IMG/VR virus record: IMGVR_UViG_2534681675_000009
DNA: 4,364 bases
Origin: a virus
Taxonomy: Duplodnaviria; Heunggongvirae; Uroviricota; Caudoviricetes
Strand: one strand, 5' to 3'
A model generated the notes under the pieces. The model was not told the DNA's origin, did no database searches, and saw nothing but the letters and a program-made list of their open reading frames with translations. Position 1 is the first letter of the stretch; the number at the start of each line of letters is the position of its first letter. Shown one piece after another: positions 1 through 4,364 of this stretch. Both the position numbers and the translations under genes were made by a program.

Positions 1-453
1 ATCGGCAGCGCCATTGGCGGTGCTGCCGGTGGCGGCTCATCAGCGTCAGGTGGTACAGCCATTCAGGCAGCTGCGGCGAAATTCCATTTTGCGACCGGAG
101 GATTTACGGGAACCGGCGGCAAATATGAGCCAGCGGGGATTGTTCACCGTGGTGAGTTTGTCTTCACGAAGGAGGCAACCAGCCGGATTGGCGTGGGGAA
201 TCTCTACCGGCTGATGCGCGGCTATGCCACCGGTGGTTATGTCGGTACACCGGGCAGTCTGGCTGACAGCCGGTCGCAGGCGTCCGGGACGTTTGAGCAG
301 AATAACCATGTGGTGATTAACAACGAAGGCACGAACGGGCAGATAGGGCCACAGGCGCTGAAGGCGGTTTATGACGTAGCCCGTAAGGCGGCAATGGATG
401 TTGTGACCGGGCAGATGCGCGATGGTGGTCTGTTCTCCGGAGGTGGACGATGA
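1..453 (+). CDS. H: Tail tape-measure protein, C-terminal fragment (5'-partial; frame 1 is open from nt 1, stop TGA at 451-453)
   Basis: Frame 1 is open from the window edge. Translation is Gly/Ala/Ser-rich (IGSAIGGAAGGGSSASGG...GNLYRLMRGYATGGYVGTPGSL...GGLFSGGGR*), typical of a tape-measure C-terminus. It sits immediately upstream of M-L-K-I-J, and its stop overlaps the M start (ATGA at 450-453). Recognised from memory as lambda gpH-like. Confidence 0.85.
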   Translation: MGSAIGGAAGGGSSASGGTAIQAAAAKFHFATGGFTGTGGKYEPAGIVHRGEFVFTKEATSRIGVGNLYRLMRGYATGGYVGTPGSLADSRSQASGTFEQNNHVVINNEGTNGQIGPQALKAVYDVARKAAMDVVTGQMRDGGLFSGGGR

Positions 454-779
454 AAACCTTCCGCTGGAAAGTGAAACCCGGTATGGATGTGGCTTCGGCC
501 CCTTCCGTCAGGAAGGTGCGCTTTGGTGATGGCTATTCCCAGCGTGCGCCTGCCGGGCTGAATGCCGACCTGAAAACGTACAGTGTGACGCTTTCCGTGA
601 CCCGGGAGGAGGCCCGGCATCTGGAGTCGTTTCTGGCAGAGCACGGGGGCTGGAAGGCCTTTCTGTGGACGCCGCCTTATGCATACCGGCAGATAAAGGT
701 GACCTGCGCAAAATGGTCGTCGCGGGTCAGTATGCTGCGTGTTGAGTTCAGTGCAGAGTTTGAACAGGTGGTGAACTGA
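450..779 (+). CDS. M: Minor tail protein M (tail tip assembly), 109 aa
   Basis: ATG at 450 overlaps the H stop. The 109-aa product (MKTFRWKVKPGMDVASAPSVRKVRFGDGYSQRAPAGLNADLKTYSV...) has the same length and position as lambda gpM. GC-rich, in phase with flanking genes. Confidence 0.9.
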   Translation: MKTFRWKVKPGMDVASAPSVRKVRFGDGYSQRAPAGLNADLKTYSVTLSVTREEARHLESFLAEHGGWKAFLWTPPYAYRQIKVTCAKWSSRVSMLRVEFSAEFEQVVN

Positions 780-1477
780 TGCAGGATATCCGGCAGGAAA
801 CACTGAATGAATGCACCCGTGCGGAGCAGTCGGCCAGCGTGGTGCTTTGGGAAATCGATCTGACAGAGGTCGGTGGAGAACGTTATTTTTTCTGTAATGA
901 GCAGAACGAAAAAGGTGAGCCGGTCACCTGGCAGGGGCGACAGTATCAGGCGTATCCCATTCAGGGGAGCGGTTTTGAACTGAATGGCAAAGGCACCAGT
1001 ACGCGCCCCACGCTGACGGTTTCTAACCTGTACGGTATGGTCACCGGGATGGCGGAAGATCTGCAGAGTCTGGTCGGCGGAACGGTGGTCCGGCGTAAGG
1101 TTTACGCCCGTTTTCTGGATGCGGTGAACTTCGTCAACGGAAACAGTGACGCCGATCCGGAGCAGGAGGTGATCAGCCGCTGGCGCATTGAGCAGTGCAG
1201 CGAACTGAGCGCGGTGAGTGCCTCTTTTGTACTGTCCACGCCGACGGAAACGGACGGCGCTGTTTTTCCGGGACGTATCATGCTGGCCAACACCTGCACC
1301 TGGACCTATCGCGGTGACGAGTGCGGTTATCACGGTCCGGCTGTCGCGGATGAATATGACCAGCCGACGTCCGATATCACGAAAGATAAATGCAGCAAAT
1401 GCCTGAGTGGCTGTAAGTTTCGCAATAACGTCGGCAACTTTGGCGGCTTCCTTTCCATTAACAAACTTTCGCAGTAA
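779..1477 (+). CDS. L: Minor tail protein L (tail tip assembly; C-terminal cysteine cluster), 232 aa
   Basis: ATG at 779 overlaps the M stop (TGATG at 777-781). The 232-aa product has the same length as lambda gpL. C-terminal Cys cluster (C173, C182, C205, C208, C212; nt 1295-1414) is consistent with the Fe-S-binding region reported for gpL. Confidence 0.9.
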   Translation: MQDIRQETLNECTRAEQSASVVLWEIDLTEVGGERYFFCNEQNEKGEPVTWQGRQYQAYPIQGSGFELNGKGTSTRPTLTVSNLYGMVTGMAEDLQSLVGGTVVRRKVYARFLDAVNFVNGNSDADPEQEVISRWRIEQCSELSAVSASFVLSTPTETDGAVFPGRIMLANTCTWTYRGDECGYHGPAVADEYDQPTSDITKDKCSKCLSGCKFRNNVGNFGGFLSINKLSQ

Positions 1478-1487
1478 ATCCCATTTT

Positions 1488-2231
1488 ATGACACAGACTG
1501 AATCAGCGATTCTGGCGCACGCCCGGCGGTGTTCGCCTGCGGAATCGTGCGGCTTCGTGGTGAGAACGCCGGAGGGAGACAGGTATCTTCCCTGCGTGAA
1601 TATCTCCGGTGAGCCGGAGGCGTATTTCCGGATGTCGCCGGAGGACTGGCTGCGGGCAGAAATGCAGGGTGAGATTGTAGCGCTGGTCCACAGCCACCCC
1701 GGTGGACTGCCCTGGCTGAGTGAGGCCGACAGGCGGCTGCAGGTGCAGAGTGATTTGCCGTGGTGGCTGGTCTGCCGGGGGGCGATTCACAAGTTCCGCT
1801 GTGTGCCACATCTTACCGGGCGACGCTTTGAGCACGGGGTGACGGACTGTTACACGCTGTTCCGGGATGCTTACCATCTGGCGGGGATTGAGATGCCGGA
1901 TTTTCATCGCGGGGATGACTGGTGGCGTAACGGCCAGAATCTCTATCTGGATAATCTGGAGGCCACAGGGCTGTATCAGGTGCCGTTGTCAGCGGCGCAG
2001 CCGGGCGATGTGCTGCTGTGCTGTTTTGGTTCATCTGTGCCGAATCATGCCGCCATTTACTGTGGTGACGGCGAGCTGCTGCACCATATTCCTGAACAAC
2101 TGAGCAAACGAGAGAGGTATACCGACAAATGGCAGCGACGCACACACTCCCTCTGGCGTCACCGGGCATGGCACGCATCTGCCTTTACGGGGATTTGCAA
2201 CGATTTGGCCGCCGCATCGACCTTCGTGTGA
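1488..2231 (+). CDS. K: Tail tip assembly protein K, two-domain (N-terminal JAMM/MPN-like metalloprotease motif + C-terminal NlpC/P60-like cysteine peptidase); 247 aa if started at the first ATG after L, with an alternative internal start at 1632 (199 aa)
   Basis: ORF in frame with the track entry 1407..2231; first ATG after the L stop is 1488 (MTQTESAILAHARR...). JAMM-type motif H-x-H-x7-S-x2-D seen directly in VHSHPGGLPWLSEAD (nt 1689-1730). NlpC/P60-like Cys context GVTDCYTLF (Cys at 1848-1850) and downstream His-rich NHAAIYCGDGELLHHIP. No clear Shine-Dalgarno before either start. Confidence 0.85.
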   Translation: MTQTESAILAHARRCSPAESCGFVVRTPEGDRYLPCVNISGEPEAYFRMSPEDWLRAEMQGEIVALVHSHPGGLPWLSEADRRLQVQSDLPWWLVCRGAIHKFRCVPHLTGRRFEHGVTDCYTLFRDAYHLAGIEMPDFHRGDDWWRNGQNLYLDNLEATGLYQVPLSAAQPGDVLLCCFGSSVPNHAAIYCGDGELLHHIPEQLSKRERYTDKWQRRTHSLWRHRAWHASAFTGICNDLAAASTFV

Positions 2232-2770
2232 AAACGGGAGCCGAAGCCATCCGGGCGCTGGCCACGCAGCTACCGTCGTTTCGCCAGAAACTGAATGAGG
2301 GCTGGTATCAGGTGCGCATTGCCGGGCGTGATGCAGGCGAAAACGAATTATCTGCCCGTCTTAATGAGCCGCTGGCAAATGGTGCCGTGATCCACATCGT
2401 ACCGCGTCTGGCGGGTGCCAAAAGTGGCGGTGTTTTTCAGGCAGTGCTGGGTGCGGCGCTGATTGCTACGGCAATCTGGATGCCGGGAATCAGTATCGCT
2501 TTCAGTGACATTCTCTTTTCTATGGGGGCAGCGATGACGCTTGGTGGTGTTGCACAGATGCTGGCCCCTAAACCCAAAACTCCACGTACACAGACAACGG
2601 ATAACGGCAAACAGAACACCTATTTCTCCTCGCTGGATAACATGGTTGCCCAGGGCAATGTCCTGCCTGTTCTGTACGGTGAAATGCGCGTGGGGTCACG
2701 TGTGGCATCTCAGGAGATCAGCACGGCAGATGAAGGGGATGGTGGTCAGGTTGTGGTAATTGGGCGGTAA
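2129..2770 (+). CDS. I: Tail tip assembly protein I, 213 aa
   Basis: ATG at 2129 lies 103 nt inside the 3' end of K in a different frame, an arrangement I recall for lambda K/I. Product begins MAATHTLPLASPGMARICLYGDLQRFGRRIDLRVKTGAEAIRALATQLP... and ends ...DEGDGGQVVVIGR, with a hydrophobic central segment. Stop TAA at 2768-2770. Confidence 0.85.
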   Translation: MAATHTLPLASPGMARICLYGDLQRFGRRIDLRVKTGAEAIRALATQLPSFRQKLNEGWYQVRIAGRDAGENELSARLNEPLANGAVIHIVPRLAGAKSGGVFQAVLGAALIATAIWMPGISIAFSDILFSMGAAMTLGGVAQMLAPKPKTPRTQTTDNGKQNTYFSSLDNMVAQGNVLPVLYGEMRVGSRVASQEISTADEGDGGQVVVIGR

Positions 2771-2842
2771 TATTATTTACTCATGTTCTAACTGATTTAA
2801 TATTTATATCGAATACTGATAATTATTCTGTTGGTTAGCTAT
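2771..2842 (+). promoter_or_regulatory. AT-rich putative promoter region for the inserted lipoprotein gene (exact -35/-10 not resolved)
   Basis: 72-bp strongly AT-rich spacer between the I stop and the lipoprotein ATG. Contains several -10-like hexamers, e.g. GATAAT at 2818-2823, about 20 nt upstream of the ATG. No convincing -35 (only weak TTTAAT/ATTTAA-type matches). Call rests on composition and moron architecture. Confidence 0.3.
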
Positions 2843-3181
2843 ATGAACAAAACGATTTTATTCTGCACGATTATTGCCTTAACAGGATGTAAATCTTTGG
2901 ATTACGTAAAATCCGGAAAACCTGTAATGGAAGGTAATTCATTAAAAAATATTGATGAATTGTCAGGCTGCATATCCAGACAATGGGCTGGTAATGGAAC
3001 ACCTATAACATCCCTTCCTATTGAGAATGGGGTAAGCCTTTTAGTTCCACAGGCTATGGGTGGGTACGATGTTGTGCTTGATATCAAAAAAGCAGGAAAT
3101 GGCAGTAGTTTTACTCTTTATGAACGAGTACCAGCATTAACGCCAAAAATTTTTGCTGATAGTGTTAATGCATGTAAATAA
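2843..3181 (+). CDS. Small predicted outer-membrane lipoprotein of unknown function (moron gene), 112 aa precursor, ~97 aa mature
   Basis: ORF-track entry 2831..3181 begins at TTG; the in-frame ATG at 2843 gives a canonical lipoprotein signal: MNK (n-region), TILFCTIIA (h-region), lipobox L-T-G-C (nt 2879-2890), then Lys at +2. AT-rich with A/T-ending codons, contrasting sharply with flanking tail genes. Two more Cys in the mature part (LSGCIS and NACK). No recognisable SD. Sequence not recognised by me. Confidence 0.7.
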   Translation: MNKTILFCTIIALTGCKSLDYVKSGKPVMEGNSLKNIDELSGCISRQWAGNGTPITSLPIENGVSLLVPQAMGGYDVVLDIKKAGNGSSFTLYERVPALTPKIFADSVNACK

Positions 3182-3205
3182 TAGTTAATCCTGCCGTAAC
3201 TCATG

Positions 3206-3233
3206 AGCCGCCTTTTGGGCGGCTTTGTCGTTT
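3206..3233 (+). terminator. Rho-independent terminator-like hairpin between the lipoprotein gene and J
   Basis: Perfect 7-bp stem AGCCGCC (3206-3212) / GGCGGCT (3218-3224) with 5-nt loop TTTTG, followed by T-rich tract TTGTCGTTT (3225-3233). It starts 25 nt after the lipoprotein stop and ends 15 nt before the J ATG. Oriented for + strand transcripts (no U-tract on the other side). Confidence 0.55.
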
Positions 3234-3247
3234 ATGGAGTGTGAGGA

Positions 3248-4364
3248 ATGGGTAAAGGAAGCAGTAAGGGGCATACCCCGCGTGAAGCGAAGGATAACCT
3301 GAAGTCCACGCAGTTGCTGAGTGTGATCGATGCCATCAGCGAAGGGCCGGTTGAAGGTCCGGTGGATGGATTAAAAAGCGTGCTGCTGAACAGTACGCCG
3401 GTGCTGGACAGTGAGGGGAATACCAATATCTCCGGTGTCACGGTGGTGTTCCGTGCAGGTGAGCAGGAGCAGACACCGCCGGAGGGATTTGAATCCTCCG
3501 GCTCCGAGACGGTGCTGGGTACGGAAGTGAAGTACGACACGCCGATTACCCGGACCATCACGTCTGCAAACATCGACCGTCTGCGCTTTACCTTCGGTGT
3601 GCAGGCACTGGTGGAAACCACCTCAAAGGGGGACCGGAATCCGTCGGAAGTCCGCCTGCTGGTTCAGATACAACGTAACGGTGGCTGGGTGACGGAAAAA
3701 GACATCACCATTAAGGGAAAAACCACCTCACAGTATCTGGCCTCGGTGGTGGTGGGTAACCTGCCGCCGCGCCCGTTCAGTATCCGGATGCGCAGGATGA
3801 CGCCGGACAGCACTACAGACCAGCTGCAGAACAAAACGCTCTGGTCGTCATACACCGAAATCATCGATGTGAAACAGGGCTACCCGAACACGGCACTGGT
3901 CGGTGTACAGGTGGACTCGGAGCAGTTCGGCAGCCAGCAGGTGAGTCGTAATTATCATCTTCGCGGGCGCATTCTGCAGGTGCCGTCGAACTATAACCCG
4001 CAGACGCGGCAATACAGCAGTATCTGGGACGGAACGTTTAAACCGGCATACAGCAACAACATGGCCTGGTGTCTGTGGGATATGCTGACCCATCCGCGCT
4101 ACGGCATGGGGAAACGTCTTGGTGCGGCGGATGTGGATAAATGGGCGCTGTATGTCATCGGCCAGTACTGCGACCAGTCAGTGCCGGACGGCTTTGGCGG
4201 CACGGAGCCGCGCATCACCTGTAATGCTTACCTGACAACACAGCGTAAGGCGTGGGATGTGCTCAGTGATTTCTGCTCGGCGATGCGCTGTATGCCGGTA
4301 TGGAACGGGCAGACGCTGACGTTCGTGCAGGACCGGCCGTCGGATAAGGTGTGGACCTATAACC
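3248..4364 (+). CDS. J: Tail tip host-specificity protein J, N-terminal ~372 codons (3'-partial, runs off the window)
   Basis: ATG at 3248 preceded by GGAG/GAGGA (3236-3247). Open frame to the window end with no stop. Translation MGKGSSKGHTPREAKDNLKSTQLLSVIDAISEGPVEGPVDGLKSVLLNSTPVLDSEGNTN... recognised from memory as a lambda gpJ-type N-terminus. Position immediately after I fits. Confidence 0.9.
   Translation, partial: MGKGSSKGHTPREAKDNLKSTQLLSVIDAISEGPVEGPVDGLKSVLLNSTPVLDSEGNTNISGVTVVFRAGEQEQTPPEGFESSGSETVLGTEVKYDTPITRTITSANIDRLRFTFGVQALVETTSKGDRNPSEVRLLVQIQRNGGWVTEKDITIKGKTTSQYLASVVVGNLPPRPFSIRMRRMTPDSTTDQLQNKTLWSSYTEIIDVKQGYPNTALVGVQVDSEQFGSQQVSRNYHLRGRILQVPSNYNPQTRQYSSIWDGTFKPAYSNNMAWCLWDMLTHPRYGMGKRLGAADVDKWALYVIGQYCDQSVPDGFGGTEPRITCNAYLTTQRKAWDVLSDFCSAMRCMPVWNGQTLTFVQDRPSDKVWTYN

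Follow-up and report, generated by a model that had tools for sequence, protein, structure and literature searches.

An AT-rich insert between tail genes I and J of a lambdoid tail operon encodes a predicted outer-membrane lipoprotein

Introduction

What is the AT-rich segment that separates genes I and J in a lambdoid tail operon, and what might the gene within it be doing there? We address this question for positions 2771-3190 of a 4,364-nucleotide (nt) stretch of viral DNA (Caudoviricetes; IMG/VR record IMGVR_UViG_2534681675_000009), which as a whole is called the window throughout. An earlier note, drawn up from the sequence alone, had read the segment as a moron, a single gene with a promoter of its own that is followed by a terminator hairpin. 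The segment is best explained as an accessory cassette that was acquired horizontally, a moron if the term is taken broadly, and its gene encodes a lipoprotein with a predicted outer-membrane location. AT-rich, single-gene accessory inserts that encode an envelope protein in a lambdoid tail operon are already well known as a kind; the lipoprotein within this one is an uncharacterised addition to it.

Morons have been defined as extra DNA of differing composition with its own promoter, its own terminator and expression from the repressed prophage (Juhala et al. 2000, per PMC3594210). From this list the insert displays two features, being extra DNA relative to collinear relatives and having a base composition unlike that of the surrounding genes.

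Results

The G+C content (GC) of the segment is 0.338, against a mean of 0.577 (standard deviation 0.017, minimum 0.536) for the 3106 other 420-nt intervals of the window (z = -14.1), and the 420-nt interval of lowest GC in the whole sequence starts at 2768. The left edge is sharp, with 40-nt GC falling from 0.53 (2731-2770) to 0.17 (2771-2810); on the right, 40-nt GC is 0.50 again by 3181-3220 and the transition is finished by about 3200. Codon usage is also distinctive. GC at third codon positions is 0.248 in the insert gene compared with 0.570 in I and 0.712 in J, lysine is encoded by AAA nine times and never by AAG, and leucine by TTA (5), TTG (2) and CTT (4) but not once by CTG, a codon that occurs 10-20 times in each flanking gene. 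The earlier note had judged by eye that an AT-rich segment of about 420 bp begins abruptly at the I stop codon (2770), ends near 3190 and uses different codons, and the sliding-window and codon counts bear it out on each of these points.

Alignment of the I-J region to relatives confirms that the segment is additional to a lambda-type backbone with a short spacer, as the same note had supposed. The I-J spacer is 60 nt long in lambda (from the record of an MG1655 lysogen) and in two other Escherichia coli prophages (JS01 and O157). Clear homology to lambda runs up to 2766 and is picked up again at 3217, about 450 nt in the window corresponding to about 33 nt in lambda. Most relatives lack the insert: of 5426 complete E. 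coli genomes, 4524 have the I-J backbone, at about 15,170 places in all, whereas 337 (about 6%) have the insert, at 349 places. We regard the insertion and its foreign composition as demonstrated. Carriers include the strains NU14, IHE3034 and O18 of sequence type 95 (ST95; extraintestinal and avian pathogenic E. coli, ExPEC/APEC), the O104:H4 outbreak clone, O55:H7 and the E. coli type strain (ATCC 11775), together with strains from possum, koala, pigeon and soil. Of about 347 copies one lies on a plasmid record, and up to three copies were counted in a few genomes.

As the earlier note had stated, the segment holds one gene, a single intact open reading frame (ORF; Table 1). Its product begins MNKTILFCTIIALTGC and carries a signal peptide, MNKTILFCTIIAL, with an n-region and an h-region; the lipobox LTGC follows MNKTILFCTIIA, fits the pattern [LVI][ASTVI][GAS]C and ends in Cys16 (codon 2888-2890). 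The residue at +2 is Lys in the window protein and Ala, Ser or Thr in its relatives. By the Lol sorting rule, lipoproteins that do not have Asp at +2 are targeted to the outer membrane, and because the +2 residue is not Asp, this is the predicted location of the protein. The mature domain of about 97 amino acids (aa) contains Cys43 and Cys111, which probably form a disulphide; together with Cys16 they are the only residues that are invariant across 52 diverse family members, and Pro27, Trp48 and Gly63 are nearly so. An AlphaFold2 model (mean predicted local distance difference test score 84.9, above 90 in the mature domain) predicts a small alpha/beta fold with the topology helix-strand-helix-four strands-helix. 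An alternative start at TTG 2831 was ruled out, all homologs beginning at a Met that aligns with ATG 2843, and two minus-strand ORFs of 43 and 61 aa within the insert were taken as chance.

Residues 1-112 of the protein match positions 1-118 of the 118-position profile of PHROG 914 (E = 7.3e-33), a family with no assigned function, so that membership supplies a name alone. The only NCBIfam match is a VirB7 lipoprotein-signal region at residues 3-26; one family member matches LPAM_1, and two homologs are named 'Lipoprotein' in UniRef. Pfam provided no family for the window protein (E <= 0.1) and, beyond lipoprotein-signal matches, none for 52 relatives (E <= 0.01). No PADLOC defence-system model matches the lipoprotein (E <= 1), a profile search against PDB sequences gave no solved structure for the family, an Rfam scan of 2500-3400 returned chance-level matches alone, and a literature search for the RefSeq accession of the protein and the PHROG number found nothing. 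The gene is intact in 57 of 60 E. coli copies and frameshifted in the other three. Among 14 DNA alleles there are 10 synonymous and 6 nonsynonymous polymorphic sites, and this synonymous bias argues for purifying selection on the gene. Preferential retention of the gene in decaying prophages is a separate idea that is unsupported, its per-base disruption not being below that of J.

Homologs 50-62% identical to the window protein are present in Klebsiella, Enterobacter, Kluyvera, Jejubacter and metagenomes (word search of 5.8 billion proteins), and an exhaustive profile search extended the family to 115 clusters at 50% identity, nearly all with members of 105-125 aa. We sorted 87 loci by their flanking genes into slots. 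All E. coli alleles, at 92% identity or more to the window protein, occupy the I-J slot; the slot between K and I holds the homologs of Klebsiella, Kluyvera and metagenomic phages (48-59%) and those of the isolated phages Fraca and LMessi (about 30%), and the slot between tail chaperone G/T and the tape measure gene (T-H) holds those of HK97-like Enterobacter phages (51-52%). The lipoprotein gene is co-directional with the tail genes in 87 of 87 loci, and members at 27-30% identity still directly follow K or precede I. In every host it is GC-poorer than its flanks (0.41-0.44 versus 0.52-0.55), a contrast that holds in Klebsiella, Enterobacter and Fraca. Since homologs are found in different slots of the tail module, the gene behaves as a mobile accessory gene of the moron type. 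Within E. coli its median identity is 98.5% (minimum 97.9%), compared with 84-100% for I and 92-99.6% for J, and a uniform gene in variable flanks is to be expected of a young cassette that travels through a mosaic backbone. Isolated phages gave no DNA match to the insert; at the protein level it matches Fraca and LMessi alone, and the Klebsiella allele matches no isolated phage. Pattern scans of viral contigs for distant relatives were mostly without result, and a scan of genome contigs gave one locus.

Other cargo was seen at the same joints. At locus L077 the K-I slot holds a 4.8-kb block (2100-6900) in which both strands carry Bro-N and helix-turn-helix (CI-like) genes. The block also contains the lipoprotein homolog, which is directly followed by a second lipoprotein gene (6406-6855, 149 aa); the latter was examined as a paralog and rejected as unrelated. 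At L014, where the lipoprotein is in K-I, the I-J slot contains a membrane protein of the 8xMP family (225 aa) and a 46-aa ORF (9217-10161), and this envelope cargo makes the I-J joint a recurrent cargo site for envelope proteins. In L091 (E. coli O111:H8) no credible ORF lies in the 236-nt I-J spacer (1182-1417). This spacer has a hairpin immediately behind the I stop codon and another, accompanied by a T-run, ahead of J, and may be what is left of lost cargo or else a non-coding element. A 193-aa metagenomic protein, P0019, matches a third of the lipoprotein at 100% identity and in addition has a PF00550 (phosphopantetheine-binding) domain; a chimera produced in assembly or gene calling is the most likely origin.

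The promoter and the terminator that the earlier note had assigned to the segment fared less well. A consensus sigma-70 scan of 2500-3400 found no site on the plus strand. The best weight-matrix site, TTTACT (2776-2781) and TAATAT (2798-2803) separated by 16 nt, scores 8.1, a value that 44% of composition-matched shuffles attain, as do sites within coding sequence elsewhere in the window. In the K-I slot the lipoprotein gene lies 32 nt behind K with a good AAGGAG ribosome-binding site, and in Fraca it lies 6 nt behind another ORF. Such gaps leave no room for a promoter, and a private promoter is therefore not a feature of the family; the proposed one upstream of the window gene is no better than chance. 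A weak promoter in the AT-rich leader, active during lysogeny, is possible. Two minus-strand promoter-like sites in the insert (3149-3178 and 2850-2882; TTTACA-18-AAAAAT and TTAAGG-16-TAAAAT) score as well as any plus-strand site and probably just reflect AT richness, though antisense transcription is possible. In an Enterobacter HK97-like phage (L011, 7960-8000) the lipoprotein gene has an 86-nt leader with an inverted repeat, CCTCCttacttctGGAGG, that is absent from the E. coli leader; its right arm is the Shine-Dalgarno sequence, and the repeat may act in translational control.

The hairpin at 3205-3225, with a 9-bp stem, does have a terminator-like score. A homologous hairpin occupies the same position in the insert-less lambda, JS01 and O157 prophages, the window and lambda forms differing by a compensatory pair (AGCCGCC/GGCGGCT versus AACCGCC/GGCGGTT), and Klebsiella, Enterobacter and Fraca phages, with no cargo between I and J, likewise have a hairpin and T-run there. 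Every lambda- or HK97-type tail module that we examined has a G+C hairpin and T-run before J, with or without cargo (for example at L003 about 990-1020, L007 9018-9045, L011 14302-14328 and L005 10008-10035). Because it is found in insert-less spacers, the hairpin belongs to a backbone joint of the tail operon and is not a part specific to the insert; its attribution to the moron seems to have been mistaken. It looks like conserved punctuation of the late tail operon, serving as an attenuator, an RNA stabiliser or a recombination joint, and as such it is no evidence for a moron. With relatives that lack the segment and a clear GC discontinuity, the core of the moron reading stands: the segment is extra, foreign, confined to a single gene in a tail operon and represented by homologs in other slots. 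The promoter lacks support, and the terminator was probably assigned wrongly.

At the K-I and T-H joints, which in relatives are without a spacer, a similar hairpin accompanies the lipoprotein gene. In Fraca (L005) the hairpin behind the gene, AAGCCACCttcgGGTGGCTTTTTTTATGG (9337-9391), is almost identical to the I-J hairpin, AAGCCACCcccgGGTGGCTTTTTTTATGG (9992-10044), which suggests that the joint was duplicated or that cassettes are exchanged when hairpins recombine. It is reasonable, though unproven, that the cassette comprises gene and hairpin and may have entered the I-J joint by recombination in the resident hairpin.

Does the lipoprotein go with the phage or with the host? In E. coli the same lipoprotein accompanies four classes of J C-termini, 43-65% identical to one another and 42-49% to lambda J, and I alleles at 69-100% identity. 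Klebsiella lipoproteins that are 100% identical go with J proteins at 54% identity, and those of Enterobacter, at 98-100%, go with tape measure proteins at 73%. Neighbouring K genes diverge as well. The lipoprotein does not co-vary with the phage entry machinery. Its allele types follow host groups: the type in the window is confined to Escherichia and Shigella, and a second to Klebsiella species, and a third occurs in Enterobacter, Citrobacter and Salmonella plus one or two E. coli contigs; neither the second nor the third type is among the 5426 complete E. coli genomes. Host-tracking alleles that are uncoupled from tail alleles favour a partner in the host envelope, although the host range of the phages is a confounder.

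The flanking genes, identified by Pfam matches of the window's ORFs, form a lambda-type tail-tip module (Table 1). The open frame of I extends back to 2129 and overlaps the 3' end of K; the start annotated in RefSeq gives a 37-nt K/I overlap like that of lambda. The nearest complete genome is that of E. coli 08-00022 (99.4-99.6% identity), where the module is part of a lambdoid prophage beside potB and the gene inside the insert is annotated merely as a hypothetical protein. J is truncated in 9 of the 45 insert-bearing prophages in which this could be judged (L001 20478-23696; J ORFs of L018-L076), and three further ones have a 1084-aa J flagged as incomplete by RefSeq. Many prophages with a truncated J are probably defective, or some of the draft assemblies contain frameshift errors.

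Table 1. Features of the window, with positions counted from its first nucleotide.
Feature	Position	Strand	Basis and remarks
Tail gene M	450-779		Pfam
Tail gene L	779-1477		Pfam
Tail gene K	1488-2231		JAB and NlpC/P60 domains, Pfam
Tail gene I	2195..2770	+	Lambda_tail_I, E=1.3e-23; start per RefSeq NZ_CP013662; stop is the left edge of the insert
Variable segment	2767..3216	+	Alignments; AT-rich foreign part about 2771-3200 (~430 nt)
AT-rich leader with weak Shine-Dalgarno	2771..2842	+	GC 0.22; median identity 97.2% among 60 copies
Lipoprotein precursor gene (112 aa and stop)	2843..3181	+	ORF, PHROG 914, homolog alignment
3' spacer, lipoprotein stop to hairpin	3182..3204	+	From sequence; not alignable to lambda
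G+C-rich hairpin GAGCCGCC-TTT-GGGCGGCTT and interrupted T-run	3205..3235	+	Scan, fold
Tail tip gene J, 5' part, runs off the window	3248..4364	+	FNIII-A_GpJ, E=2.6e-41; gpJ annotation; GGAG ribosome-binding site

Discussion

Phages are known to encode small lipoproteins that close the door behind them. Cor (acting on FhuA), Llp of T5 (FhuA) and Rtp45 (LptDE) block adsorption from the periplasmic side and also shield progeny from debris; exclusion lipoproteins of this sort are small and disulphide-bonded, sit in the inner leaflet of the outer membrane and are encoded beside tail or receptor-binding genes. We tentatively propose, with a confidence somewhat short of an even chance, that the lipoprotein is a superinfection-exclusion or receptor-masking factor that acts at the envelope and is analogous, not homologous, to Cor, Llp and Rtp45. 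The protein would bind a host envelope component and thereby hinder adsorption or envelope penetration of incoming siphophages, and it may also keep progeny from being wasted on debris. Its gene would be transcribed at least within the late operon, and the pre-J hairpin would stop transcripts from a leader promoter that are not antiterminated. gpI is now viewed as a tail-tip hub that probably inserts into the outer membrane at infection, which makes the recurrent pairing of lipoprotein genes with gene I suggestive. Pseudomonas phage AH14a has two copies of gene I, one of them outside the tail module, and this copy adjoins a gene for a 93-aa structural homolog of the lipoprotein that has no signal peptide as annotated (PMC4936722). 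In the satellite AH14b an I gene is followed by a lipoprotein gene (PMC4936722), and the pairing of gpI and lipoprotein may be general.

The closest parallel in genome organization is gene 15 of HK97, the original moron, which lies between the tail chaperone and tape measure genes and encodes an inner-membrane superinfection-exclusion protein that blocks entry. Both are extra DNA when set against relatives, and both are single small genes for an envelope protein, of odd GC and co-directional in a tail operon, followed by a hairpin and T-run, and the Enterobacter homolog of the lipoprotein occupies exactly the gp15 slot. In contrast, gp15 is a YebO-like inner-membrane protein, whereas the window gene encodes a lipoprotein that has a soluble, folded domain and no sequence relation to gp15. 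The promoter and prophage expression demonstrated for gp15 are no more than possible for the window gene, and the hairpin in the window belongs to the backbone.

Among outer-membrane proteins, Cor of phi80, N15, HK022 and T1-type phages is likewise a small lipoprotein, encoded among the tail or fibre genes of the phage. The mature window protein, at about 97 aa, is larger than the 77-aa precursor of Cor, and the lipoprotein, unlike Cor, has no link to one receptor-binding type. Homology to Cor was considered and rejected: when the family profile was compared with Fraca Cor by hhalign, the alignment covered the signal peptide and lipobox alone (31 columns), and the mature domains are therefore unrelated. 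Llp of T5 and Rtp45 of phage Rtp are disulphide-stabilised, inner-leaflet outer-membrane lipoproteins encoded beside tail or receptor-binding genes, as the window protein is predicted to be, and the mode of action that we propose, binding to the periplasmic side of an outer-membrane protein, is the same. They differ from it in size (about 6 kDa) and fold, and in that their targets, FhuA and LptDE, match the receptor-binding protein of the phage itself, whereas the window lipoprotein is uncoupled from J. Bor of lambda is another outer-membrane lipoprotein from an accessory gene of a lambdoid prophage; the window protein has no match to Pfam Lambda_Bor and its gene a different genome position. 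Bor lies beside the lysis genes. The Francisella lipoprotein Flpp3 (DUF3568) and the N-terminal domain of BamC resemble the model at only 6-12% identity, with scores in the generic range of TATA-binding protein-like and helix-grip folds, and none of the 52 members matches Pfam DUF3568.

Several observations weigh against an exclusion role. The protein falls in no named family, and the literature search found nothing on it. There is neither sequence nor fold similarity to Cor, and Llp and Rtp45 are not among the best PDB matches by sequence or by structure. Fraca has both the lipoprotein gene and cor, which means that the one is not simply a substitute for the other. Neither promoter scan found a significant site. 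The occurrence of one lipoprotein with at least four J receptor-binding classes disfavours masking of the phage's own receptor, unless that receptor is shared, and the tracking of hosts by alleles is confounded by phage host range, with one allele cluster spanning Enterobacter, Citrobacter and Salmonella. Some distant family members lie outside tail modules, several others being on contigs too short to show gene context. Finally, disruption per base is 1.5e-4 in the lipoprotein gene and 6.6e-5 in J, both from small numbers.

If phage exclusion is nonetheless its function, a phage-resistance determinant that is unannotated and missing from current catalogues of defence systems would be present in about 6% of the E. 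coli sequenced, with related alleles in Klebsiella, Enterobacter, Citrobacter and Salmonella, and this would bear on the prediction of host range in phage therapy. If its function is ordinary or absent, the insert is merely one more hypothetical moron. The family is in addition a clean case of one cargo gene in three different siphophage tail-operon joints.

A bolder version, which we consider distinctly doubtful, holds that these proteins, with the window protein as the representative from E. coli, form an unrecognised family of outer-membrane lipoproteins, dedicated accessories of lambda- and HK97-type tail-tip modules with a usual place next to I or K, that block penetration of the outer membrane by the tail-tip hub of incoming siphophages whichever receptor is used. 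The lipoprotein would act on a conserved host envelope component, the hub would consist of gpI and the C-terminus of the tape measure protein, and exclusion would follow adsorption, a step distinct from receptor masking by Cor, Llp and Rtp45 and from inner-membrane exclusion by gp15.

Two alternatives accept an envelope protein and differ from our preferred reading in when or why it is made. It may be a late lytic gene product, made only from the Q-antiterminated transcript, that modifies the envelope of the dying cell by blocking receptors on debris or by aiding release; we place this on the unlikely side, as the strongest of the alternatives. The co-directional, embedded position in the late operon at 87/87 loci is just what it predicts, the 32-nt K-I spacer with its strong Shine-Dalgarno sequence and the 6-nt gap in Fraca fit it as well as the lack of a significant promoter in the window does, and exclusion lipoproteins have themselves been reported to keep phages from adsorbing to the fragments of lysed cells. 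For a purely operon-internal gene, however, an AT-rich leader of 72 nt and a poor ribosome-binding site are odd, most relatives do without the gene altogether, which makes it dispensable, and it is intact in prophages with a truncated J. The protein could instead serve lysogenic conversion in the manner of Bor, expressed from the prophage and altering serum resistance, adhesion or envelope stress tolerance with no role in phage biology, which we judge unlikely. An outer-membrane-type lipoprotein on a foreign AT-rich cassette, uncoupled from tail alleles, would suit such a role; so would the enrichment in pathogen lineages (ST95 ExPEC/APEC, O104:H4, O55:H7), although the possum, koala, pigeon and soil strains among the carriers tell the other way, and so would the closest fold, Flpp3, whose PDB entry is titled a virulence determinant of F. 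tularensis. Against it stands the location in the tail-tip module, which is kept in E. coli, Klebsiella, Enterobacter, Fraca and metagenomic phages, even by members with no more than 27% identity, and which points to a role in phage biology; the missing Bor match in Pfam, the lack of a detectable promoter and the lack of preferential retention count against it too.

The remaining two alternatives seem to us very improbable. A tail assembly factor or virion component would account for a gene located between I and J here and beside I or K elsewhere, and for the pairing with gpI in AH14a and AH14b. The signal peptide and lipobox, however, take the protein out of the cytoplasm, where tails assemble, and a protein that is exported and lipid-anchored is therefore not a cytoplasmic assembly factor; furthermore, lambda lacks the gene, as do most relatives whose I and J are about 93% identical, its composition is foreign, and it occupies different slots in different phages. 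That the ORF is a decaying or non-functional remnant in AT-rich junk DNA, an idea that the three frameshifted copies among 60 and a per-base disruption not below that of J might encourage, is scarcely credible for a family of 115 clusters at 50% identity with a uniform length near 112 aa, three invariant cysteines, a confidently predicted fold and synonymous-biased polymorphism.

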